Origin: Lentisphaerae bacterium GWF2_49_21 | Lineage (GTDB): Bacteria > Verrucomicrobiota > Lentisphaeria > Victivallales > GWF2-50-93 | NCBI GenBank assembly: GCA_001804805.1 | Contig: MHBH01000077.1 | Location: forward strand, 87,355 to 151,354 | DNA length: 64,000 bases | Direction: 5' to 3' | In this document: positions 9,986-64,000 of the stretch, in pieces | Position numbering within the stretch: the first letter of the stretch is position 1 | How the letters are laid out: each line of letters starts with the position of its first letter | Position numbers and translations under genes: made by a program | The notes under the pieces: model-generated | The model's database searches: none | Told to the model about the DNA's origin: nothing | The model's input: only the letters and a program-made list of their open reading frames with translations

Positions 9986-9997
9986 GGTATCAGATTA

Positions 9998-10027
9998 TCG
10001 ACAGGATAACAGGATTAACAGGATAAT
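9998..10027 (+). promoter_or_regulatory. promoter module copy 1: TCGACA-N18-GATAAT, spacer = 3 x ACAGGATWA
   Basis: ACAGGATAACAGGATTAACAGGATAAT differs by 1 nt from the copy at 21497..21523. An inverted partial copy (AAAATCCTGTAATCCAGTC) lies at 10049..10067. Confidence 0.45.
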
Positions 10028-10102
10028 TATGCATAAAGGAAAATCATGAAAATCCTGTAATCCAGTCAAATAATAGATTATTAATAAAAGGAGGAATTGG
10101 AA

Positions 10103-18171: not shown

Positions 18172-18205
18172 GGAACGTCTTATTGTAATATTGAACCTGA
18201 AACTT

Positions 18206-18342
18206 GTTGGTAGTTAAGCCCGTAAGGACTGTTTCTGGGAGTAGGTACGTGCTTCAGCATGTACCATCTTAATATTCAGGATTGGGACAGGCTAAAGCCC
18301 GTCCCTACTTTAAGAACATGTCTTGCGACATTAACTACAAAC
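18206..18342. repeat. two-shell composite REP element (137 bp)
   Basis: Outer shell: GTTGGTAGTTAA+hairpin (18206-18230) and hairpin+TTAACTACAAAC (18318-18342). Inner REPIN: GTAGGTACGTGCTTCAGCATGTACC (18241-18265) and GGGACAGGCTAAAGCCCGTCCCTAC (18284-18308). Confidence 0.8.
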
Positions 18343-18390
18343 GAATTCAAATAGGCGATTTAAAAACCGCCAGACCTGGGAGGAAATACT

Positions 18391-20645: not shown

Positions 20646-20649
20646 ATTT

Positions 20650-20787
20650 GCTTGTAGTAGTGCAATTTATTGCACATTCTAGAAGTAGGGACGGGCTTTA
20701 GCCTGTCCCACTCTTATAATCAAGATGGTACATGCTGAAGCACGTACCTACTTGGAATAACGGCGTATAAATTCGCCTACTACAAAC
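20650..20787. repeat. two-shell composite REP element (138 bp)
   Basis: Outer shell: GCTTGTAGTAG+TGCAATTTATTGCA and GGCGTATAAATTCGCC+TACTACAAAC. Inner REPIN at 20685-20751, same as the 18241 unit in opposite orientation with a diverged spacer. Confidence 0.8.
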
Positions 20788-20811
20788 ATGATCTGCGTGA
20801 AACTTGAACTC

Positions 20812-21477: not shown

Positions 21478-21493
21478 TTATCAAAACCTTTTT

Positions 21494-21523
21494 TTGACAG
21501 GATAACAGGATTTACAGGATAAT
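21494..21523 (+). promoter_or_regulatory. promoter module copy 2: TTGACA-N18-GATAAT, spacer = 3 x ACAGGATWA; candidate promoter of the C1 operon
   Basis: Perfect -35 at 21494-21499 and GATAAT at 21518-21523. The next plus-strand gene starts at 21985, implying a leader of about 450 nt. Confidence 0.5.
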
Positions 21524-21600
21524 AATATTGTATGCCTTAGCATGCGGAAATCAAGCTTAATATTTTCATGTAACCGCCGGACTCGCAACGTTCCTATTTC

Positions 21601-24106: not shown

Positions 24107-24262
24107 GTAGGTACGGGCTTTAGCCTGTACCATTGGTACACCCTAAAGGGCATACCTAAGAAGTAGGGACGGCCTTTCTGTGTCCGGCGTAGCCTTTTGG
24201 CGAAGTCGGAAGGCTGTCCCAATCAAGAACGTAGAATGGTACAGGCTAAAGCCCGTACCTAC
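24107..24262. repeat. compound REPIN filling the whole intergenic gap (4 REPs)
   Basis: GTAGGTACGGGCTTTAGCCTGTACC at 24107-24131, directly after the TAA stop. Its perfect inverse is at 24238-24262. Inside are a degenerate REP (24135-24160) and GTAGGGACGGCC[37-nt insert]GGCTGTCCC (24163-24220). Confidence 0.85.
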
Positions 24263-24278
24263 TTTAAGAAGATAAACT

Positions 24279-25058
24279 ATGAAAATCGCAATATCAGGGA
24301 AAGGGGGGGTGGGCAAATCGACACTTGCCGCCGCCCTCGCCCTGCTCATGGCGGAGAAGAAGAGAAAAGTGCTTGCGCTAGACACGGATCCGGCTGCGAA
24401 TCTCGCAAACGCCATCGGCATTCCTGCAGACATCAGGAACAAGATTATCCCAATTTCCAAACAAAAATCCCTGATCGAAGAGCGCACCGGCGCAAAAGTG
24501 AAACAATACGGACAGATGTTCAAGCTGAATCCTGAAGTCTCTGACATCGCCGACAAGTACGCCGTCAATTACAATGGAGTCTCCCTCATCGTGGTTGGCG
24601 CGATCGAAAAAGGCGGGAGCGGCTGTGCGTGTCCGGAGAGCGTCCTGATCAGGGCACTTGTGACAAACCTCGTGCTCCACAGGAACGAGGCGCTGATAAT
24701 GGACATGGAGGCCGGTGTCGAACATCTCGGCAGGGCGACCGCCAGCGGTGTCGACGGCATGATCATAGTCGTGGAGCCCGGACAGCGTTCCATCGACTGC
24801 GCAAAGGCGATAATCGGGATGGCCCATGACATCGGACTGAAGAAGCTGCATATCGTCGCAAACAGGGTGACCTGCCATGAAGACGAAACTTTTGTCAAGA
24901 ATTCTTTTCCTGACCAGGAACTGCTTGGATCTATCCCATTCTCGGAGAAGGTCCGCAAGTCCGATATGAACGAGGTTTCCGTCCTTGAGAAGATAGAACC
25001 GGAGACAAGAAAGGCTTTTGAATCAATTCTAAATAATGTTGAGAGGCTTTTAAAATGA
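24279..25058 (+). CDS. cooC: CODH/ACS nickel-insertion ATPase (CooC/AcsF family)
   Basis: 259 aa. P-loop GKGGVGKST; CooC CxC motif (GSGCACPES). Confidence 0.85.
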   Translation: MKIAISGKGGVGKSTLAAALALLMAEKKRKVLALDTDPAANLANAIGIPADIRNKIIPISKQKSLIEERTGAKVKQYGQMFKLNPEVSDIADKYAVNYNGVSLIVVGAIEKGGSGCACPESVLIRALVTNLVLHRNEALIMDMEAGVEHLGRATASGVDGMIIVVEPGQRSIDCAKAIIGMAHDIGLKKLHIVANRVTCHEDETFVKNSFPDQELLGSIPFSEKVRKSDMNEVSVLEKIEPETRKAFESILNNVERLLK

Positions 25059-25267
25059 AAACGGATGTCGTGCGTGAAAAATATGTCCGTCTCATGACGG
25101 AAATCGAGGATCTCGAGGACAAGATCGAGAAAGCTGAGAAAAAAGTTTCAAAGAAGGCCGGAAAGAAGGCTGAAAAGGAGCTTGAGCTGATGAAAGAACA
25201 GCTTGCGGCGAAAAGGAACGAGCTCGCAAGGATCAGCGACGGCTGCGGAAAACCGCATGCGCATTAG
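25055..25267 (+). CDS. small coiled-coil protein with a C-terminal Cys/His tail (hypothetical)
   Basis: 70 aa. ATGA overlap with cooC (translational coupling). Lys/Glu-rich heptad-like sequence ending in DGCGKPHAH. Confidence 0.45.
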   Translation: MKTDVVREKYVRLMTEIEDLEDKIEKAEKKVSKKAGKKAEKELELMKEQLAAKRNELARISDGCGKPHAH

Positions 25268-25269
25268 AA

Positions 25270-25439
25270 GTAGGGACGGCCTTTCTGTGTCCGGCGTAGC
25301 CTTTTGGCGAAGTCGGAAGGCTGTCCCAAGCAAGAAAGCAGAATGGTACAGGCTAAAGCCCGTACCTAAGAAGTAGGGACGGCCTTTAGGCTGTCCCAAG
25401 TAAGAATGTAGAATGGTACAGGCTAAAGCCCGTACCTAC
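25270..25439. repeat. two tandem REPIN doublets
   Basis: 25270-25327 is identical to 24163-24220 (the insert-bearing REP). Paired REP at 25345-25366. GTAGGGACGGCCTTTAGGCTGTCCC at 25373-25397 is the insert-free version. GGTACAGGCTAAAGCCCGTACCTAC at 25415-25439. Confidence 0.85.
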
Positions 25440-25448
25440 TTAAACAAA

Positions 25449-26279
25449 ATGTCCTACACAATAGCAGTGACAGGCAAAGGCGGGGTCGGCAAGACGACAG
25501 TGACCGGGCTTATCATCAACCGGCTCCTGGCGAACGGACGGACGCCTGTGCTTGCCGTAGACGCGGATGCAAATTCATGCCTGCATTCCGTTCTCGGGGT
25601 GACGGTTGAGAATTCTGTCGGCAAAATCCGTGAAGAAGCACGAGAGGAAGCGTCGAAGGGAAAAGTCACGGGAATCGCAAAACAGCAGATGCTCGAAATG
25701 AAGATAGCAGAATGTCTTGTCGAAGCGAAGGATTTCGATCTTATCGCGATGGGCAGGCCCGAAGGACCGGGCTGCTACTGCTACGCGAACAATGTATTGA
25801 GGGACGTAATCCGGAAACTTTCATCGAGCTATCCATACGTGGTAATCGACAACGAGGCGGGACTTGAAAACCTTTCGCGGCGTATTGTCCAGAAGGTCGA
25901 TCTTCTTGTGATGGTCGCGGATCCTTCGAAGAACGGAATCGAGACTATCAGGCGTCTTCACAAGCTTGCCTTTGAGATGAAAATAGATTTCAAGAAGCTC
26001 TGCATCTTCATCAACAGGACCAGGGACGGCAAGATTCCTGAAGAGGCGAAATATCTGAAGAATGAGACTGAAGCTGATTTTATCATACCTCTACCCGACA
26101 ACAAGGAAATTGCATCATTCTCGGAAAAGGGAACTTCACTGTTCGAGCTTTCCGTTGAGAACGAAGTGTCCAAGATAGTAGATGAATTTGTAGGACAATT
26201 GGATTGCATATTTGGCTGCGCCAAATCTGCAAAAGCAACTGCGTTGCAGGAGAAAATGGCAGCGAAGCTGCACATATAG
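25449..26279 (+). CDS. cooC: CODH nickel-insertion ATPase (CooC family), second copy
   Basis: Start at the ATG at 25449 (the upstream part of the ORF is REP sequence). GKGGVGKTT P-loop and GPGCYCY CxC motif. Confidence 0.8.
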   Translation: MSYTIAVTGKGGVGKTTVTGLIINRLLANGRTPVLAVDADANSCLHSVLGVTVENSVGKIREEAREEASKGKVTGIAKQQMLEMKIAECLVEAKDFDLIAMGRPEGPGCYCYANNVLRDVIRKLSSSYPYVVIDNEAGLENLSRRIVQKVDLLVMVADPSKNGIETIRRLHKLAFEMKIDFKKLCIFINRTRDGKIPEEAKYLKNETEADFIIPLPDNKEIASFSEKGTSLFELSVENEVSKIVDEFVGQLDCIFGCAKSAKATALQEKMAAKLHI

Positions 26280-31796: not shown

Positions 31797-31797
31797 T

Positions 31798-31878
31798 CTC
31801 GCACTAAGGCACAAAGGCTCTAAGTATTATGAAATTCAAAATAGATGAAACTTCGTGGCTTTGTGACTTTGTGAGAGG
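31798..31878. repeat. inverted repeat of tandem CACAAAGG-type units between acsB-D and acsC
   Basis: CTCGCACTAAGGCACAAAGGCTCTAAG against CTTCGTGGCTTTGTGACTTTGTGAGAGG. It begins 2 nt after the stop codon. Confidence 0.6.
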
Positions 31879-31902
31879 ATAAAGTTCAAGGAGGTATTCA
31901 CC

Positions 31903-35195: not shown

Positions 35196-35198
35196 TAA

Positions 35199-35228
35199 CG
35201 GACTGGATAACGGAATTTACAGGATTAT
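35199..35228 (+). promoter_or_regulatory. promoter module copy 3 (diverged): CGGACT-N18-GATTAT
   Basis: ACTGGATAACGGAATTTACAGGATTAT aligns with the 27-mers at 10001 and 21497. The -35 is weak. Confidence 0.3.
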
Positions 35229-35314
35229 TTTATGGTTATAATTCCCACAAAGAAAAAGTAATCTCTAGTCTGTGAAAGTCTGTGGCAAAATAATCTCAAA
35301 GGATTCTATATCTG

Positions 35315-43770: not shown

Positions 43771-43790
43771 TTGAAACTCCTTATAAAAAT

Positions 43791-43873
43791 TGGATTAATG
43801 GATTGCTGGATTTATGGATTAATGGTTTTGGATATTAACCCAGTCATCCAACCATCCATCAATCCAATCATCC
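43791..43873. repeat. inverted repeat built from tandem TGGATTWA 8-mers
   Basis: TGGATTAA TGGATTGC TGGATTTA TGGATTAA TGGTTT TGGATATT (43791-43836), followed by inverted ATCCA units (43841-43873). Confidence 0.65.
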
Positions 43874-46084: not shown

Positions 46085-46124
46085 CAGTTCTATCAACTTT
46101 GAGATTGAAAATCTTTTCAGGCAA

Positions 46125-46192
46125 GTTTGTAGTTAAGCCATTTTTGGCTGTGAATATAAACACGAAGAAACACGCAAGAATGCGTTAACTAC
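46125..46192. repeat. empty outer-shell element (no inner REPIN)
   Basis: GTTTGTAGTTAA+GCCA-TTTT-TGGC ... ACGCA-AGAA-TGCGT+TAACTAC. Confidence 0.7.
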
Positions 46193-46277
46193 CAGCAAAT
46201 AAACATACGATATTTTGACTGCAGCAGTTATTAACAGAGGCAATTTCAAAATTGCCTCTTTTGAGCTGATTGCTAAA

Positions 46278-46346
46278 GTAGGAGTTCACAGCTTTAGATG
46301 TGCATCCAATTGATGATAAGACACAACTGAAGTTGTGAACTCCAAC
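46278..46346. repeat. GT[A/T]GGAG-headed REPIN doublet
   Basis: GTAGGAGTTCACAGCTTTAGATGTG (46278-46302) and ACACAACTGAAGTTGTGAACTCCAAC (46321-46346). Confidence 0.75.
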
Positions 46347-49717: not shown

Positions 49718-49741
49718 CCCCAGCCTAACTGCTGGGGCTAC
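49718..49741 (-). repeat. REP hairpin GTAG+CCCCAGC-AGTTAG-GCTGGGG
   Basis: The plus strand reads CCCCAGCCTAACTGCTGGGGCTAC. Confidence 0.6.
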
Positions 49742-58248: not shown

Positions 58249-59319
58249 ATGCAGGACAATCCGGTAAACAAACTTTTTGAAAAACGTGTAAGCTGGCTCG
58301 CGGACAGCGGCCCCGAGGACGACATAGCCATAAGCTCAAGGATACGTCTCGCGAGAAACCTGTGCGATCTGCCTTTTCCTTCGAATGCAAGCACGGAACA
58401 TCTTGATTCCTCCACCGCCGCGGTCCTCCTGGCCGTGGAAAAATTGAAGATCTTCAAGAAATTCTACGAGATCGACATGTCCAAGCTGAGCGCCCTCGAC
58501 AGGCAGGTCCTCCTTGAAAGAAGGCTCATAAGCAGGGAGTTCTACGCGAAGAAGCAGAACACCGCCCTTATAATGACGGATGATGAGATATGCGCCATCA
58601 TGATCAACGAGGAGGACCACCTGAGGATGCAGGCGATACTCTCGGGACTGCGCCTCGGCGAAGTCTGGAAGATCATTGACAGGATGGATGACAGGCTCTC
58701 GACCGAGCTTCCTTTCGCCTTCGATGTGAACCTTGGATACCTGACATCCTGTCCTACAAATGTCGGAACGGGAATCAGGGCTTCGGTAATGCTGCATCTC
58801 CCGGGACTTGTCCTTTGCGAACAGATAAACGCCGTCATCCAGGCGGTAAACAAGCTCGGACTTGCCGTCAGGGGTATTTTCGGAGAGGGAACTGAAAGCC
58901 TTGGAAACCTTTTCCAGATCTCGAACCAGAGCACTCTCGGCGAAACGGAGGTTCAGATCATCGACAGGCTCGAATCGGTCATCAGGCAGATAATCAACCA
59001 TGAGAAGAACTCCCGCCAGAAGCTCCTGCATAACCGCAGGGAATTCCTGATGAACCACATTGGAAGGGCATTTGGAATACTGAGGCATTCATACATCGTA
59101 TCGAGCGAGGAGACACTGAACTCCCTTTCCGCGCTGAGACTCGGCGTTGACATGGGCATGTTCTCGTCAGTAGACATTCATACGGTAAATGAGCTGTTCG
59201 TGACAGTACAGCCCGGACATCTGCAGAAATACGCCGGCAAGGAGATCGATCCCTCCGAGCGCGATATTTTCCGGGCCACTCTAATAAGGGAGAGGTTGAA
59301 GTCTTCGGAAAAGAAATGA
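58249..59319 (+). CDS. mcsB: protein arginine kinase (ATP:guanido phosphotransferase)
   Basis: 356 aa. CPTNVGTGIRASVMLHLPGL signature. Confidence 0.88.
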   Translation: MQDNPVNKLFEKRVSWLADSGPEDDIAISSRIRLARNLCDLPFPSNASTEHLDSSTAAVLLAVEKLKIFKKFYEIDMSKLSALDRQVLLERRLISREFYAKKQNTALIMTDDEICAIMINEEDHLRMQAILSGLRLGEVWKIIDRMDDRLSTELPFAFDVNLGYLTSCPTNVGTGIRASVMLHLPGLVLCEQINAVIQAVNKLGLAVRGIFGEGTESLGNLFQISNQSTLGETEVQIIDRLESVIRQIINHEKNSRQKLLHNRREFLMNHIGRAFGILRHSYIVSSEETLNSLSALRLGVDMGMFSSVDIHTVNELFVTVQPGHLQKYAGKEIDPSERDIFRATLIRERLKSSEKK

Positions 59320-59320
59320 A

Positions 59321-59430
59321 TGTCCAATATCGAACAAGGAATGTCGAATGTTGAAGTAAATTTCCCGGAAAATGATTTTGATTCCACTTGGATATTGGAA
59401 ATTCCTTGTTGGATATTGGTTATTCAAGGA
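59321..59430. repeat. heptamer-periodic inverted repeat between mcsB and the kinase gene
   Basis: TGTCCAA TATCGAA CAAGGAA TGTCGAA TGTTGAA (59321-59355) against TTCCACT TGGATAT TGGAAAT TCCTTGT TGGATAT TGGTTAT (59382-59423). A 19-nt core matches with 1 mismatch. Confidence 0.65.
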
Positions 59431-59441
59431 AAGATGTTTTA

Positions 59442-61415
59442 ATGGAAACAACGATAACATGCGTACTGGCCCTTCTTGAGATGACTTTCATCTTCGTGGG
59501 GCTCCTTATACTCCACGGCCTCAGGAAGGAGATCGGAAGTTCGGCCTTCTATATTGCCATCGGGCTCCTGCTTATTTTCACCCAGCTGGTGAGTGCAACC
59601 GAATTGAAGGTCATAATCGGATTCCAGGGCGCTGATTTCTATATTGCTCAAAGCGTGCTTTTCCTTCCATATCTCGCAGCCCTGATGGTCATCTATATAA
59701 CAGAGGGGACGCTCACCACCCACAGGTTCATAATCGGCGCCATGGCGACCCTCGGCCTCTACGTCTACCTGAGCTACATCACGGGAATGCAATGCGGCTG
59801 GGCCGGCATGACCATATCCCAGGGCGCATCTGCAAGCTCCTTTGAAAACCTCCTCTCCAACAGCCAGAGGACCATGGCAAGTTCCATCCTCGCGCAGACA
59901 CTGGACCTCTTCCTGATTCCAATCTTCTTCCAGAGACTGAGAAACCTAGGATGCAGAATGTTCTTCTCGGTGCTCGGTTCGCTGATGCTGACGCAGCTTG
60001 TCGACACCTTCGTCTATTCCTTCGTATGCTTCTGGGGCGAACCGCAGCTCTGGGTCTACCTGAGATCCTCATATATCGCAAAAGCCGTCTTCACGATTGT
60101 GCTCAGCGTGATCGCCACAATATATCTAACCAAGATCGAGACCGAGATCCCCGGCGAAAAACGCAGGACGCTCGATATCATAGTCGCATTCCTTGAAAGC
60201 TACAGCAAGACTAAGATCCTCGAAAGGAACCTGCAGGAATCGGAAGGCAGATACCGTACCGTGATTGAAAACGCAAGCGACATGATACTGCTCCTGAACC
60301 GGGATGGAAAGATCCTCGATGCAAACAACACCGCACTCTCCCTGCTCCATATGAAAGCCAAGAAGGAGATCATCGGAAAATCATTCCCCGAAATGCTCAC
60401 GGACACTTCCGAATTCCCGTTCAACATAGACTCCTACTGGGATGAGACTGTCAGAAAGACAAAACTTGGCGAACCCCACATCCACAATTTCCAGCTCCAC
60501 GCTCTTTCCCCGAACGGAAAGAAAATCGAACTCGATGTGGCCCTCAACGTCATGGAAGTGGAGAACGTGCAGGTGCTGATAGTGTTTGGCAGGGATGTCA
60601 CCGAACAGAACAGGCTCAACCGGGAACAGGAGGAGCTCCGCGAGGAACTCGCGCACGCACAGAGGCTGGAATCAGTCGGACAGCTCGCCGGCGGCGTCGC
60701 GCACGACTTCAACAACTACCTCCACGCCATCCAGGGCAATCTCGACATCCTTCTTTATATGCACGAAATCGAGGACAAGAAGGTCATCAAGCACCTGAAC
60801 AGGATTACTGACATCACCGGACAGGCATCCAAGCTGACAGGGGAGCTGCTCGGTTTCGCACGCAAGGGCAAATACCGCGAAGAGATACTGGACCTTTCAA
60901 AGCTCATGCGCGAAACTATCGAGCTCTTCAGTCCGCCGTCTCTCGGAAACATTGAACTGGCAATTGACATCGACAAGGGCAAAATGACTGTCAAGGGCGA
61001 TGCCGTCCAGCTCAAGCAGGTCTTCCTGAACATACTGATAAACGCCAGGGACGCCGTTGAATCCAAGGCCGGAAAGAACGCCAGGATATCGCTGGAAGCC
61101 AAAAACGCCGAAGTCTTCATAGAAAAATATTTCCCGCCTCCAGAAAAGGAGAACATGAAAATATCGTCGTTCTTCTGCGTCAGGATACAGGACAATGGAA
61201 TCGGGATGGACAAGGAGACGCTGAGCCGCATCTATGATCCTTTCTTCACGACCAAGCCCATAGGGAAAGGCACCGGCATGGGGCTCGCGATGGCCTATGG
61301 CGCAATCTCCAACCATCATGGATGGATGTACGTAGAAAGCAATGAGGGCGAAGGCTCCGCCTTCTACATATTCCTGCCCCGATACGATGGAAAGGAAGAA
61401 TTGCAACATGCTTAA
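59442..61415 (+). CDS. membrane PAS sensor histidine kinase
   Basis: Polytopic N-terminus, PAS domain (SEGRYRTVIENASD), H-box VAHDFNNYL, HATPase GTGMGLAMAYG. Start could instead be the TTG at 59388. Confidence 0.85.
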   Translation: METTITCVLALLEMTFIFVGLLILHGLRKEIGSSAFYIAIGLLLIFTQLVSATELKVIIGFQGADFYIAQSVLFLPYLAALMVIYITEGTLTTHRFIIGAMATLGLYVYLSYITGMQCGWAGMTISQGASASSFENLLSNSQRTMASSILAQTLDLFLIPIFFQRLRNLGCRMFFSVLGSLMLTQLVDTFVYSFVCFWGEPQLWVYLRSSYIAKAVFTIVLSVIATIYLTKIETEIPGEKRRTLDIIVAFLESYSKTKILERNLQESEGRYRTVIENASDMILLLNRDGKILDANNTALSLLHMKAKKEIIGKSFPEMLTDTSEFPFNIDSYWDETVRKTKLGEPHIHNFQLHALSPNGKKIELDVALNVMEVENVQVLIVFGRDVTEQNRLNREQEELREELAHAQRLESVGQLAGGVAHDFNNYLHAIQGNLDILLYMHEIEDKKVIKHLNRITDITGQASKLTGELLGFARKGKYREEILDLSKLMRETIELFSPPSLGNIELAIDIDKGKMTVKGDAVQLKQVFLNILINARDAVESKAGKNARISLEAKNAEVFIEKYFPPPEKENMKISSFFCVRIQDNGIGMDKETLSRIYDPFFTTKPIGKGTGMGLAMAYGAISNHHGWMYVESNEGEGSAFYIFLPRYDGKEELQHA

Positions 61416-62304
61416 AAATCCATTTCCTGGAAACATCAAACATATCGCCATCGTATCACTGGCGGGAAAACCCAAGAAAGAGGCGGTATCGGCAACGTGC
61501 AAGCTTCTGAAGGAGCTCGGTATAAGGATTACTGTCATGCCTAACGTCTTCGCCCCCGAGCATGGACCACAACTTCCTTCCGGCTGCGAGCTCCGCATTT
61601 CTGACCTGCACAGGGCGCTGAAGGACAAATCCGTCGATCTCATCCTTTGTTCACGTGGAGGACATGGTTCGGCACATCTTCTTGACAAGGTTGACTGGGC
61701 GCTACTGAAAAAAAGGAATATTCCTGTCCTCGGATACAGCGACATCACCACCTTCCATCTTGCGATGTTCGCAAAAAAGGCCGGAACCGCCATCTCGTCC
61801 CCCATGCCTTTTGAACTTCCAAGGGCGCTGAAACATCCTCTTACATGGGATTCCCTGCATCACTCCTTTGATGATGATTCAAAGAAAAATTTTCCGCTCG
61901 CGGAAAAATTTAAAATTAACGTGATAAGAAGAGGCAAGGCCTCCGGAAGGATAATCCCAGTAAACCTCACAGTTCTTACGACCATGCTCGGGACTCCATA
62001 CCTGCCCGATTTTAAAGGTGCTGTACTTCTTATAGAGGATCTCAATGAGCCCGTCTACAAACTCGACCGTTACCTCACACATCTTAGGCTTGCCGGGGTG
62101 TTGAAGGATATTTCAGCATTGCTTTTCGGAAATTTCCGGCGATGTGGGAATGAGAAGGAAAGGAAGAGAATCTTTGCGAAATTCGCAGAAGATGTCAAGG
62201 GCCCGGTAATCTCCGGCATTCCCTTCGGCCACATCAAGCGCCGCCTCTGCCTGCGCTTCGGCTCCAAAGTCAAAATTGACAACGATAAAATATCCTATCT
62301 ATGA
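61408..62304 (+). CDS. ldcA: LD-carboxypeptidase (peptidase S66)
   Basis: Start at the ATG at 61408 (8-nt overlap with the kinase gene). Nucleophile motif GYSDITTFH. Confidence 0.8.
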   Translation: MLKNPFPGNIKHIAIVSLAGKPKKEAVSATCKLLKELGIRITVMPNVFAPEHGPQLPSGCELRISDLHRALKDKSVDLILCSRGGHGSAHLLDKVDWALLKKRNIPVLGYSDITTFHLAMFAKKAGTAISSPMPFELPRALKHPLTWDSLHHSFDDDSKKNFPLAEKFKINVIRRGKASGRIIPVNLTVLTTMLGTPYLPDFKGAVLLIEDLNEPVYKLDRYLTHLRLAGVLKDISALLFGNFRRCGNEKERKRIFAKFAEDVKGPVISGIPFGHIKRRLCLRFGSKVKIDNDKISYL

Positions 62305-62903
62305 TCTCGACTCCAGTATTAGTGCTGAGGAAGACTCCTTACAGCGAGACAAGCATCATTGCCGCAACGCTGAGCCCTGAGCATGGCCGTCTGGACTTCA
62401 TGATCAAGGGGGCGAGACAGATCTCCAGGAAAAAATTTCCACAGGTAGATCTTTTCCGTGAGCTTGAAGTCCATTTCCACCATAATAATTCCGGCCTCAA
62501 CAACATACATTCCGTTGAACTTATAAGCTCCTTTGACAACATAGCATCCTTTCCATCAAACTATCTGAGTGGATGCGAGATCGCGACATTCGTCCTGCGG
62601 AATTCGCAGAGCATGATCCCTTCGCCAGAGGTCTATTCTGCTTTAAAGACATCATTCTCGGCTTTGAGCAGTTCTAAGACGGATATTCCATGGACAGCTC
62701 TTTTGAAGCTTGTCTATCTTGATGAACATGGTTTCCTACCGGAAGACATGGATTTGAGCGGTGATTCAAAAAAACAGGAAGTGATGGAAAACCTGCTCGA
62801 TGCTGTGATCCTAGGTTCACCCCTGCCCGATTTCCCCAGTAAAACCTGGCAGAAACTCGCCGAATGGGCCGACAAGCTCTGCAAGTACCATGAACTAGAG
62901 TAA
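62301..62903 (+). CDS. recO: DNA repair protein RecO (short form)
   Basis: 200 aa. N-terminal OB-fold pattern VLVLRKTPYSETSIIAATLSPEHGRLDFMIKGAR. Confidence 0.7.
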   Translation: MISTPVLVLRKTPYSETSIIAATLSPEHGRLDFMIKGARQISRKKFPQVDLFRELEVHFHHNNSGLNNIHSVELISSFDNIASFPSNYLSGCEIATFVLRNSQSMIPSPEVYSALKTSFSALSSSKTDIPWTALLKLVYLDEHGFLPEDMDLSGDSKKQEVMENLLDAVILGSPLPDFPSKTWQKLAEWADKLCKYHELE

Positions 62904-62945
62904 GATTGAGTCGGAGAACCGACCATAAAGAGAGTCTTGTGCATT

Positions 62946-63087
62946 GCTGTAGCCGCGTCACTCTGATGACGCGTCTAGTATTGAAGAACACGCCAACAGA
63001 GTGGCGTGGCTACAGCAGAGCAATTATAGAAAAACAAATCATTAGAAACAGAAGGGACGCGTCAGCAGAGTGACGCGGCTACAGTGG
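62946..63087 (+). repeat. REP cluster (3 REPs), left direct repeat of the RAYT cassette
   Basis: GTAGCCGCGTCACTCTGATGACGCGTC (62949-62975, forward), GTAGCCACGCCACTCTGTTGGCGTG (62989-63013, reverse), GTAGCCGCGTCACTCTGCTGACGCGTC (63056-63082, reverse). Confidence 0.85.
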
Positions 63088-63113
63088 AAATAATTATATA
63101 AGGAGCATGCGAT

Positions 63114-63593
63114 ATGGAGGAATATCCTAAGAGACCGCCCCGCCTTACGACATTGTTCAGCGGCGTAAAACCATTTTATTTCGTAACGTTCAACACTCGC
63201 AACAGGAAAAGCGTTCTTGCAAATGACAAGATCTATGAACGTTTTCTATCCTTCTGCAATGAAGCGAAAGAACATGGAGTCTTCGTCGGGACATTCGTAA
63301 TCATGCCAGATCACATTCACTTGTACGTCTGGATAAATCTTGAAAGCTGTGGCCTCAAGAAATGGATTAAATCCTTGAAATGCTTTTTAAGCGTCAGTCT
63401 GGATGAAATGAACGTCAAAAGACCTCATTGGCAAGAAGGATTTTTCGACCATATCCTACGAAGCTCCGACAGCTACAGGGAGAAGAGCATTTACATGATG
63501 AATAATCCTGCAAGGGCAGGTTTATGTAAACCACCTGATGAATGGAAGTACAAAGGGACAATGAAAGACATCTACTGGTCTGACTACGATTAA
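63114..63593 (+). CDS. REP-associated tyrosine transposase (IS200/IS605-like Y1 HUH enzyme)
   Basis: 159 aa. HUH motif (MPDHIHLYV) and catalytic Tyr context (SIYMMNNP). Flanked by GTAG-headed REPs. Confidence 0.85.
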   Translation: MEEYPKRPPRLTTLFSGVKPFYFVTFNTRNRKSVLANDKIYERFLSFCNEAKEHGVFVGTFVIMPDHIHLYVWINLESCGLKKWIKSLKCFLSVSLDEMNVKRPHWQEGFFDHILRSSDSYREKSIYMMNNPARAGLCKPPDEWKYKGTMKDIYWSDYD

Positions 63594-63610
63594 ATTGATC
63601 TCTCGGCTTC

Positions 63611-63753
63611 GCTGTAGCCGCGTCACTCTGCTGACGCGTCTTGTATTGAAGAACACGCCAACAGAGTGGCGTGGCTACAGCAGAGCAATTATAGAAAAAA
63701 CAAATCATTAGAAACAGAAAGGACGCGTCAGCAGAGTGACGCGGCTACAGCGG
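63611..63753 (+). repeat. REP cluster (3 REPs), right direct repeat of the RAYT cassette
   Basis: REPs at 63614-63640 (forward), 63654-63678 (reverse) and 63722-63748 (reverse). Confidence 0.85.
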
Positions 63754-63755
63754 AA

Positions 63756-64000
63756 TCAACAAAGAGGGCAATTTTTCAGGCACCCGCCCTTCCTGCAATG
63801 TTCCTTCGCCATGCGGACGAAAAGGGCATGGAATTCGTTGAAGATCTTTGGCTCATTCGGCAGATTGTCCATGAAATATTTCCTGAGTTCATGGTAGTCG
63901 ATGTCAGGCTTGAATCCGAAATGCCTCGACATGATCCTCTTCGTATATGCATCGATCACGAATGTCGGAAGATTGAAGCTGTACAGGAGGATGCTGTCCG
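63756..64000 (-). CDS. endonuclease III-like (HhH-GPD) protein, C-terminal part; 5' end lies outside the window
   Basis: ORF is open to the window edge. IDAYTKRIMSRHF... and the C-terminal Cys cluster (HCRKGGCLKNCPLC). Confidence 0.55.
   Translation of the reverse strand, partial: DSILLYSFNLPTFVIDAYTKRIMSRHFGFKPDIDYHELRKYFMDNLPNEPKIFNEFHALFVRMAKEHCRKGGCLKNCPLC

Follow-up and report, generated by a model that had tools for sequence, protein, structure and literature searches.

A RAYT gene bordered on both sides by directly repeated three-REP clusters in a Victivallales genome

The biology of RAYTs (REP-associated tyrosine transposases) and of repetitive extragenic palindromic sequences (REPs) is based almost entirely on Enterobacteria, Pseudomonas and Stenotrophomonas. 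The locus considered here comes from Lentisphaerae bacterium GWF2_49_21 and lies in a stretch of 64,000 nucleotides (contig MHBH01000077.1 of assembly GCA_001804805.1, positions 87,355 to 151,354 of the forward strand; 'the window' in what follows), where a RAYT gene stands between two near-identical clusters of three REPs each. It is very probably a REPtron, that is, a domesticated, single-copy and vertically inherited RAYT flanked left and right by clusters of its cognate REP hairpins. Its family membership, its architecture, its conservation, the dispersal of its REP class in relatives and the covariation within the REP stem are established here by observation.

Class 2 (TnpA-REP) enzymes have a published signature, which consists of a tyrosine motif Y-x-x-x-N-P and a WQ motif (PMC6006769), and the mechanistic precedent for such proteins comes from characterised TnpA-REP enzymes (PMC8266576, PMC3333891, PMC3479197). 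Domesticated RAYTs have been described as housekeeping-like in their behaviour (PMC5581495). For the PVC (Planctomycetes-Verrucomicrobia-Chlamydiae) superphylum, the survey by Di Nocera et al. 2013 (PMC3733652) reports GTAG REPs in Opitutus terrae (where they are 'highly enriched') and in Rhodopirellula baltica; it also describes coexisting REP families, dimers and trimers near the 3' ends of genes, REPtrons with monomer or dimer flanks and, in species with several GTAG REP families, repeat-specific REPtrons. A preliminary description of the window had taken RAYT/REP systems to be characterised mostly in Proteobacteria, which needs qualifying: PVC GTAG REPs and RAYTs were already documented (Opitutus terrae, PMC3733652), and relatives of the present protein carry the RayT label in public annotation.

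The RAYT gene and its flanking blocks

The gene (63114-63593, plus strand) encodes a protein of 159 aa and has a ribosome-binding site, AAGGAG (63100-63105, plus strand), 8 nt 5' of its start. The preliminary description had read it as a Y1/HUH transposase with HIH and YMMNNP motifs, and profile, sequence and fold matches of this open reading frame (ORF) agree. Specifically, the protein matches Y1_Tnp in Pfam (31.8 bits) and scores 85.1 bits with the NCBIfam model NF047646 (REP_Tyr_transpos), a small margin over the cutoff of 80, as against 23.9 bits with the IS200/IS605 model NF033573, below its cutoff of 55. The top sequence match in the PDB is 4ER8, the E. coli TnpA-REP bound to a REP hairpin (E 2e-8), and in the alignment HIH corresponds to HMH and Y127 to the tyrosine of a YIYINP segment. 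An AlphaFold (AF2) model with 38 homologs as input (predicted local distance difference test, pLDDT, 81.5) retrieves 4ER8_A first in Foldseek (E 1.5e-7, template modelling score, TM, 0.66), with the IS608 and ISDra2 transposases next. The HUH motif is H67-I-H69, W106-Q107 forms the WQ motif and a catalytic-type Y127 lies in YMMNNP (Y127-MMN-N131-P132); none of H67, H69, W106, Q107, Y127 and N131 varies among the 38 homologs. With its class placed by comparing the class 2 signature with published motifs, the protein is, as judged from sequence and structural model, a RAYT/TnpA-REP and not an ordinary IS200 transposase.

The flanking blocks (left, 62946-63087, 142 nt; right, 63611-63753, 143 nt) are direct repeats of each other on the two sides of the gene, and each reads REP(+), 15 nt, REP(-), 44 nt, REP(-). 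Four mismatches and one 1-nt indel in a run of A separate them, which corresponds to about 96.5% identity, in line with the roughly 97% given for the same three-REP block in the preliminary description; the spacers of 13 and 42 nt stated there are those of 15 and 44 nt counted here with stem-delimited REPs, a difference of definition only. In a repeat search the two blocks appear as direct repeats 62941-63034/63606-63699 (94 nt, 96%) and 63030-63089/63696-63755 (60 nt, 97%), with a start-to-start spacing of 665/666 nt. A 17-nt core, GTAGCCRCGYCACTCTG, has six exact matches in the window, all of them in the flanking blocks and none elsewhere in the window (heads at 62949+, 63013-, 63082-, 63614+, 63678- and 63748-), where 0.25 would be expected by chance and none of 100 shuffles reached six. 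The two-block observation is real and far beyond chance.

Each flanking REP is a 25-nt element composed of GTAG, a C, a perfect 7-bp stem and a 6-nt loop, and the class that they form (TGTAGCC head, 7-bp stem, CTCTGY loop) is called R class below. On the left, REP1-L (62949-62973, plus strand; GTAGCCGCGTCACTCTGATGACGCG, GCGTCA stem type) begins 45 nt past the stop codon of recO and forms a tail-to-tail heterotypic doublet with REP2-L (62989-63013, minus strand; GTAGCCACGCCACTCTGTTGGCGTG), a stem variant that differs by two compensatory changes. REP3-L (63058-63082, minus strand; GTAGCCGCGTCACTCTGCTGACGCG) lies 31 nt before the ATG of the RAYT, a position kept at RAYT loci of related genomes. 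On the right, REP1-R (63614-63638, plus strand) begins 20 nt past the RAYT stop codon; TCTTGTATTG comes after its hairpin and it scans as terminator-like. It is followed by REP2-R (63654-63678, minus strand), which has the ACGCCA stem variant, and by REP3-R (63724-63748, minus strand), which lies 7 nt past the stop codon of a minus-strand HhH-GPD (nth-like) gene and scans as terminator-like on that strand. The REP1 form reads GTAGCCGCGTCACTCTG[A/C]TGACGCG on the plus strand, and REP3 is of the REP1 type. When a block is folded as a single strand, its outer REPs pair into a hairpin of about 30 bp that encloses the inner REP, with energies of -42.9 kcal/mol (z -10.8) for the left block and -52.2 kcal/mol (z -13.0) for the right one.

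Conservation of the locus and dispersal of its REP class

Upstream of the RAYT lies recO (62301-62903, plus strand), itself preceded by an LD-carboxypeptidase gene, and downstream the nth-like gene converges on it and ends at 63756, with the right block between the two. The nearest homologs of the RAYT and of its neighbouring genes belong to metagenome-assembled genomes (MAGs) of Victivallales, and therefore the earlier guess of a PVC host, made from gene content, was right. The window holds a single RAYT, and the exact protein occurs in one genomic context only, across 5-7 contigs; near-identical full-length copies at unrelated sites were absent from the window, the compared loci and the assemblies searched. 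Since the protein does not group with IS200 transposases and the assemblies searched hold no identical copies elsewhere, the earlier reading of a domesticated RAYT, and not a normal insertion sequence (IS), stands. Among contigs encoding the exact RecO protein there was no strain without a RAYT between recO and nth, and two short unitigs with the exact RecO end inside the left block. Homologs checked as possible further RAYTs of the same genome (P0007, P0009, P0054) all came from other samples, and when 120 homologs were run by tblastn on all loci, the matches other than R-class RAYTs were all distant Y1 proteins.

In related genomes the locus recurs. The Victivallales MAG JBAQUG has an ortholog (L112) that is 88% identical and holds the same position after the LD-carboxypeptidase gene and recO, with the leader between REP3 and ATG kept, and both JBAQUG and the MAG JBAZRS have a RAYT paralog (81-83% identical; L042, L078) beside yggS, about 6 kb away within the same conserved neighbourhood. 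In a V. vadensis MAG (L096), recO is followed by the same REPs and then by the end of the contig. The ratio of nonsynonymous to synonymous substitution (dN/dS) is 0.05-0.14 across the compared loci, and dS is 0.55-0.69 inside each locus type and 1.5-2.4 between locus types. By these substitution rates the loci are assigned to two old paralog lineages under purifying selection, and the pattern matches the housekeeping-like behaviour described for domesticated RAYTs. As a separate observation, genes of DNA repair and recombination surround the RAYT (window 61342-64000; L002 10643-16808), namely recO upstream, the nth-like gene downstream and ruvA about 6 kb off, and the paralog elsewhere adjoins yggS/ruvA; this repair-gene neighbourhood may be a coincidence.

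The layout of the REPs was compared, oriented by gene, at four RAYT loci in three genomes (the window, L112, L042 and L078). All four are flanked by R-class REPs and have, upstream, a REP(+), about 15 nt, a REP(-), 45-65 nt and a REP(-) about 31 nt before the ATG, and downstream, beginning about 20 nt past the stop codon, a REP(+), 15 nt and a REP(-), with or without a further REP(-). A complete three-REP block is found on each side of the RAYT at L078, and the blocks of L042 and L112 are partly decayed; at L112 the first REP has lost exactly its hairpin, and the contig stops within the downstream REP. Because the two-sided cluster layout recurs at four loci in three genomes, it can be regarded as a conserved feature of the clade. 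The identity of left and right blocks is 96-97% in the window, 83% at L042 and 71% at L078, and that of blocks from different loci 55-79%. Since the blocks of one locus are more alike than those of different loci, their resemblance points to concerted evolution within each genome.

The same arrangement extends further. A contig from an unrelated sample (L119) has a 48%-identical RAYT with REP(+)/REP(-) doublets in direct orientation on both sides, and MAGs of Chthoniobacterales and Verrucomicrobiota have RAYTs of about 50% identity, mutually syntenic in the order ADH-RAYT-KhpB/R3H-YidC, whose flanking REPs share the format (head CTGTAGCC, stem of the GCGGCG type, loop CTCAGT). Nor is a gene between near-identical REP clusters limited to RAYT. 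In the window, two clusters of another REP class (class A, described below), 24107-24262 and 25266-25440, are in direct orientation, have 103 nt in common at 97% identity with a spacing of 1107 nt, and enclose a gene for a cooC-like P-loop ATPase (24279-25058) and a small lysine-rich ORF (25055-25267) with no transposase. The idea that the direct-repeat block is peculiar to this locus has therefore to be given up, given these clusters and the layout at the RAYT loci of other species.

R-class REPs are widely dispersed in relatives. A scan with GTAGCCRCGYCACTCTGNTGRCGYG against one genome per prokaryotic species matched at least 115 loci in at least 15 genomes, mostly of Victivallales, Victivallis and 'Lentisphaerae' MAGs, with Opitutaceae, Opitutales, Lentimonas and Chthoniobacterales also among the matches listed; a relaxed search of the matched loci found, in three Victivallales genomes, at least 62, at least 38 and at least 36 copies. 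From 196 copies the consensus G-C-T-GTAGCC-R-CG-Y-CA-CTCTGY-TG-R-CG-Y-G-(T/C)TCTTT was derived. T occupies position -1 in 99% of copies; a CT lies on the 5' side of GTAG in 63%, and another lies 3' of the hairpin stem. Of 199 copies, 99.5% and 98.5% have Watson-Crick pairs at the two variable positions of the stem (GC/AT at one, TA/CG/GC at the other), whereas independent columns would give 52% and 59%. That these pairs stay Watson-Crick shows selection on the hairpin, with few independent compensatory events, because many copies are common by descent.

Most R-class copies among the listed matches form inverted doublets: 43 are head-to-head (gap of 14-15 nt) and seven tail-to-tail (gap of 15 nt), the latter being the type that flanks the RAYT. 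Two different stem variants in fixed combinations make up 56 of 57 doublets, and the head-to-head doublet is a unit of about 80 nt, recently amplified in relatives, whose sequence, with its spacer, hardly varies over more than 40 loci from at least five genomes. One presence/absence case was found, in JBAZRS (L044), where an R-class doublet sits between orthologs of the genes that flank window positions 31797-31902, with none in the window; for this single case the boundaries are blurred by a diverged spacer. The window segment 31797-31902 lies between genes and is itself an inverted repeat built from CACAAAGGC/GCCTTTGTG-type motifs, which is kept in L044 with the R-class doublet inside it. 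Elsewhere in the window, a solitary hairpin at 49718-49741 (minus strand) has the TGTAGCC head with another stem and loop (GTAGCCCCAGCAGTTAGGCTGGGG) and is perhaps an R-class relative that has diverged.

Proposed mechanism, rival explanations and other REP classes

For catalysis, the cleavage site, mobilisation and a regulatory role we infer what follows, the mechanism by homology with the TnpA-REP enzymes of E. coli, Stenotrophomonas and Marinomonas. The enzyme would bind the folded single-stranded REP, on one strand only, and read the GTAG head and bases of the CTCTGY loop; it would cleave at a nearby CT through Y127, forming a 5'-phosphotyrosine link while the HUH histidines hold a metal ion. 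Strand transfer and rejoining would then mobilise REP doublets (REPIN- or BIME-like units) around the chromosome, probably on single-stranded DNA at replication forks. The layout of REP, inverted REP (iREP), iREP, gene, REP, iREP, iREP recalls the ends of an ancestral IS200/IS605-like element, where the hairpins lie on one strand, and the two blocks could be kept alike by concerted evolution, through either gene conversion or re-copying. The REPs at gene ends probably also serve as terminators or RNA-stabilising hairpins for recO, the RAYT and nth, and a role in termination or in the control of RAYT expression is plausible as a secondary one.

Some results weigh against reading the locus as a REPtron. 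The window and the 9.6 kb downstream of it (73.6 kb in all) contain no dispersed R-class copies. When metagenome contigs were sampled by class A sequence (114 loci, 826 kb, many from the JGI sample to which the exact RAYT contig belongs), the tally was 244 class A, 22 class C, 18 class B and five class D REPs and only two of the R class, which form one head-to-head doublet; this sample mixes related species 78-85% identical to the window, so the rarity should be read as one of the lineage rather than, strictly, of the strain. With two copies in 826 kb and none dispersed in 73.6 kb, the R class is thus nearly confined to the RAYT flanks in lineages rich in class A. From these counts, the RAYT gene may have very few substrates in this lineage and could owe its conservation to a different role. 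Upstream of the RAYT, a scan for sigma-70 promoters also gave no match in the leader, though PVC promoters may not fit the consensus.

A bolder version of the REPtron reading is that the two-sided layout, kept across species and homogenised within each genome, is no passive relic but marks a functional 'master' locus of this PVC RAYT clade whose enzyme acts on its own flanks, and that REP family and RAYT have co-evolved from Lentisphaeria to Chthoniobacterales and Opitutales. This is doubtful; the possible roles of such a locus are autoregulation, or continual re-copying that seeds new doublets. If it is true, the TGTAGCC/CTCTGY REP family and its RAYT would be among the most deeply conserved REP-RAYT pairs, and the source genome would keep its enzyme under selection with almost no dispersed substrates.

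The rival that survives best holds that the blocks are mainly regulatory hairpins of the host (bidirectional terminators or stabilisers of mRNA) spread by recombination, with a RAYT that has a non-transposition role. As the principal account it is improbable. It can draw on the REPs directly past the stop codons of recO, RAYT and nth, two of them terminator-like, on the direct class A clusters around the cooC-like gene, on the scarcity of R-class REPs in class-A-rich lineages and on the general position of REPs downstream of ORFs (PMC3733652). However, it leaves unexplained the strict association of RAYT and REP class across loci, down to 50% protein identity, as well as the near-identical doublets of about 80 nt dispersed in relatives. 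The two readings are compatible, and the REPtron reading does not exclude host regulatory use of the same hairpins.

A further possibility is that one RAYT services all REP classes of the genome. Besides the flanking class, the window has about 34 REPs (the preliminary description had put them at roughly 35), which fall into five classes and, as had been stated, have only the GTAG head in common with it. Class A (pattern GTAGGnACnnnCTTyAGnnnGTnCC) has 13-17 copies, class B (pattern GTwGGAGTTCAC...) 5-7, class C (GTAGTTAA plus a hairpin) six, and classes D and E two each; classes A-D are found in related Victivallales MAGs too. That all classes A-E and the RAYT's own have a GTAG or GTTG head and a short perfect hairpin, that the 64 kb hold a single RAYT, that the E. 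coli TnpA-REP handles three REP types (PMC8266576) and that the RAYT gene is conserved even where the R class is rare would all suit a shared enzyme. It is nevertheless quite improbable, because a related metagenomic contig has a separate RAYT (L182 7067-7705, minus strand; NF047646 85.4 bits) that is about 29% identical to the window's RAYT family and is tightly flanked by class A REPs at both ends, with an iREP before its start codon and a REP after its stop. The whole unit (L182 6980-7846, Ga0154564_109) is a class-A-specific REPtron, in which the RAYT has about 200 aa and NHVH as its HUH motif, and three tandem class A REPs lie upstream; similar proteins occur at L229 9721-10317 and L227 11790-12452. 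Moreover, recognition by group 3 enzymes involves specific bases of the loop (PMC8266576), and here the loops are not alike (CTCTGY versus TTYA); genomes with several families have repeat-specific REPtrons according to the PVC survey (PMC3733652). The earlier statement that one RAYT coexists with at least five REP classes is therefore correct inside the 64 kb and probably does not hold beyond the window.

The reading of the locus as an autonomous IS of IS200/IS605 type, in which a 665-bp unit of block and gene is mobile, has same-strand hairpin ends and was inserted between recO and nth, is highly improbable. It is true that, as in IS608, the gene has REP(+) hairpins of the same strand to its left and right, that the fold is common to the IS608 and ISDra2 TnpA, and that a related genome has a second RAYT copy about 6 kb away. 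But the protein passed the RAYT model and fell far below the cutoff of the IS200 model (23.9 against 55), its Y-x-x-x-N-P motif is of class 2 and not of the class 1 type (PMC6006769), and a single context was found in all assemblies searched. The orthologous locus in another species, the V. vadensis recO followed by the same REPs, and the age of the paralogs (dS 1.5-2.4) under purifying selection also speak against it. That the second block is a mis-assembled duplicate, as might be imagined from short-read unitigs that break in the left block and from the L112 contig that ends in the downstream REP, has a negligible probability, because three independent assemblies (ENA ERZ27254744; NCBI GCA_003488745.1, contig DNKO01000089.1; JGI 3300025154) are 100% identical over the RAYT locus, including the four mismatches and the indel between the left and right blocks, and the two-sided layout is seen in other genomes.

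Several observations concern the other repeats and Y1 proteins of these genomes. At 24163-24220 and 25270-25327, in both clusters around the cooC-like gene, a class A REP (GTAGGGACGGCC...GGCTGTCCC) carries a loop insertion of about 35 nt, which has its own GTAGCC-headed segment (CTGTGTCCGGCGTAGCCTTTTGGCGAAGTCGGAA). Nested composites occur at 18198-18352 (C[A A]C), 20649-20788 (E[A A]E) and 46117-46346 (C C B B), where the inverted doublet of one class lies inside an inverted pair of another. At 25413-26279 and at L182 7067-7705 the longest reading frame starts within a class A REP, which gives a spurious N-terminus ('MVQAKARTY...' and 'MVQPKGRTY...'), and gene callers may be over-extending genes into REPs in these genomes. 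An array of six class A REPs with a 55-nt period (L139 1621-1921, Ga0209417_1000429) was considered as CRISPR-like and rejected, since its 'spacers' are identical and it is therefore a tandem duplication; these spacers hold a small hairpin of their own. A Victivallis sp. MAG encodes a 340-aa long-form Y1 protein (L076 5100-6122, minus strand; HYH, YIHLNP, long C-terminal extension) that resembles the type of RAYT group 1 / subclass 2.1 and has no obvious flanking REPs. The window also has non-GTAG intergenic repeats, with 41-nt and 35-nt imperfect inverted repeats composed of short AT-rich sub-repeats at 59317-59426 and 43789-43868 (GGATTAATGGATT..., TGTCCAATATCGAA...), and a three-copy family, GACAGGATAACAGGATTTACAGGAT, at 9995-10030, 21491-21526 and 35196-35231.

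Comparison with known systems

The locus is a well-formed example of the known REPtron system in a little-studied lineage and not a new kind of element, since GTAG REPs and REPtrons of the PVC group were described in 2013 (PMC3733652) and relatives of the protein already bear the RayT label; the current picture of what RAYTs are is unchanged. What goes somewhat beyond the literature consulted is the two-sided three-REP layout with its homogenisation within the genome, the heterotypic doublet that Victivallales species share with hardly any change, the spread of this REP format and RAYT clade across Verrucomicrobiota, and the conservation of a RAYT in a lineage where dispersed cognate REPs are very few. 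Together with the comparative data it provides a clean non-proteobacterial case, with a compact enzyme, a short perfect REP and a conserved loop and head, in which compensatory evolution of the stem and a heterotypic doublet near-identical across species can also be seen. Related genomes range from dozens of R-class copies to almost none, with the RAYT under selection throughout; this contrast in copy number is useful for asking how a RAYT is maintained with a small REPIN population, and the system for working out the rules of loop and head recognition outside the model systems.

With IS200/IS605 elements (IS608, ISDra2) the RAYT shares the catalytic fold. In those elements, hairpins bordering the coding sequence are recognised on one strand, and the likeness here is one of layout only: the REP(+) copies lie on the same strand on both sides (62949, 63614), and the REP(-) copies follow at 63013/63082 and 63678/63748. 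Unlike them, the locus fails the IS200 model, has the class 2 tyrosine motif, lacks multiple identical copies and keeps its position across species. The PVC GTAG families of O. terrae and R. baltica, as treated in PMC3733652, are alike in the GTAG tag, in having several families per genome, in their repeat-specific REPtrons and in their dimers and trimers; the survey did not include Lentisphaerae/Victivallales.

The RAYT-REPIN systems of group 3 / subclass 2.5 (Pseudomonas, Stenotrophomonas, Marinomonas) resemble the present one in their short perfect palindromes with GTAG at the stem or 1-2 nt from it, in the doublet as the replicating unit, in several REP families per genome with RAYTs of their own, and in vertical inheritance with old paralogs. 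The conserved loop of the R class suggests that the loop may be read out as in that group. The doublets here, however, are heterotypic and not near-perfect inverted copies, and the cognate REP population appears tiny in the lineage of the window.

Closest in sequence and fold is the E. coli REPtron (TnpA-REP/RayT, 4ER8, with REP/BIME; RAYT group 2 / subclass 2.2). Both have a single-domain Y1 HUH enzyme of about 160 aa with Y-x-x-x-N-P, encoded by a single-copy gene bordered by GTAG-headed REPs, and the heterotypic inverted doublets are reminiscent of Y/Z BIMEs. The present system differs in a protein identity of only about 21-30%, in its Victivallales host, in REPs whose short hairpins (a perfect stem of 7 bp, a loop of 6 nt) lack the bulge required by the E. 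coli enzyme, and in flanks that consist of two directly repeated three-REP blocks.

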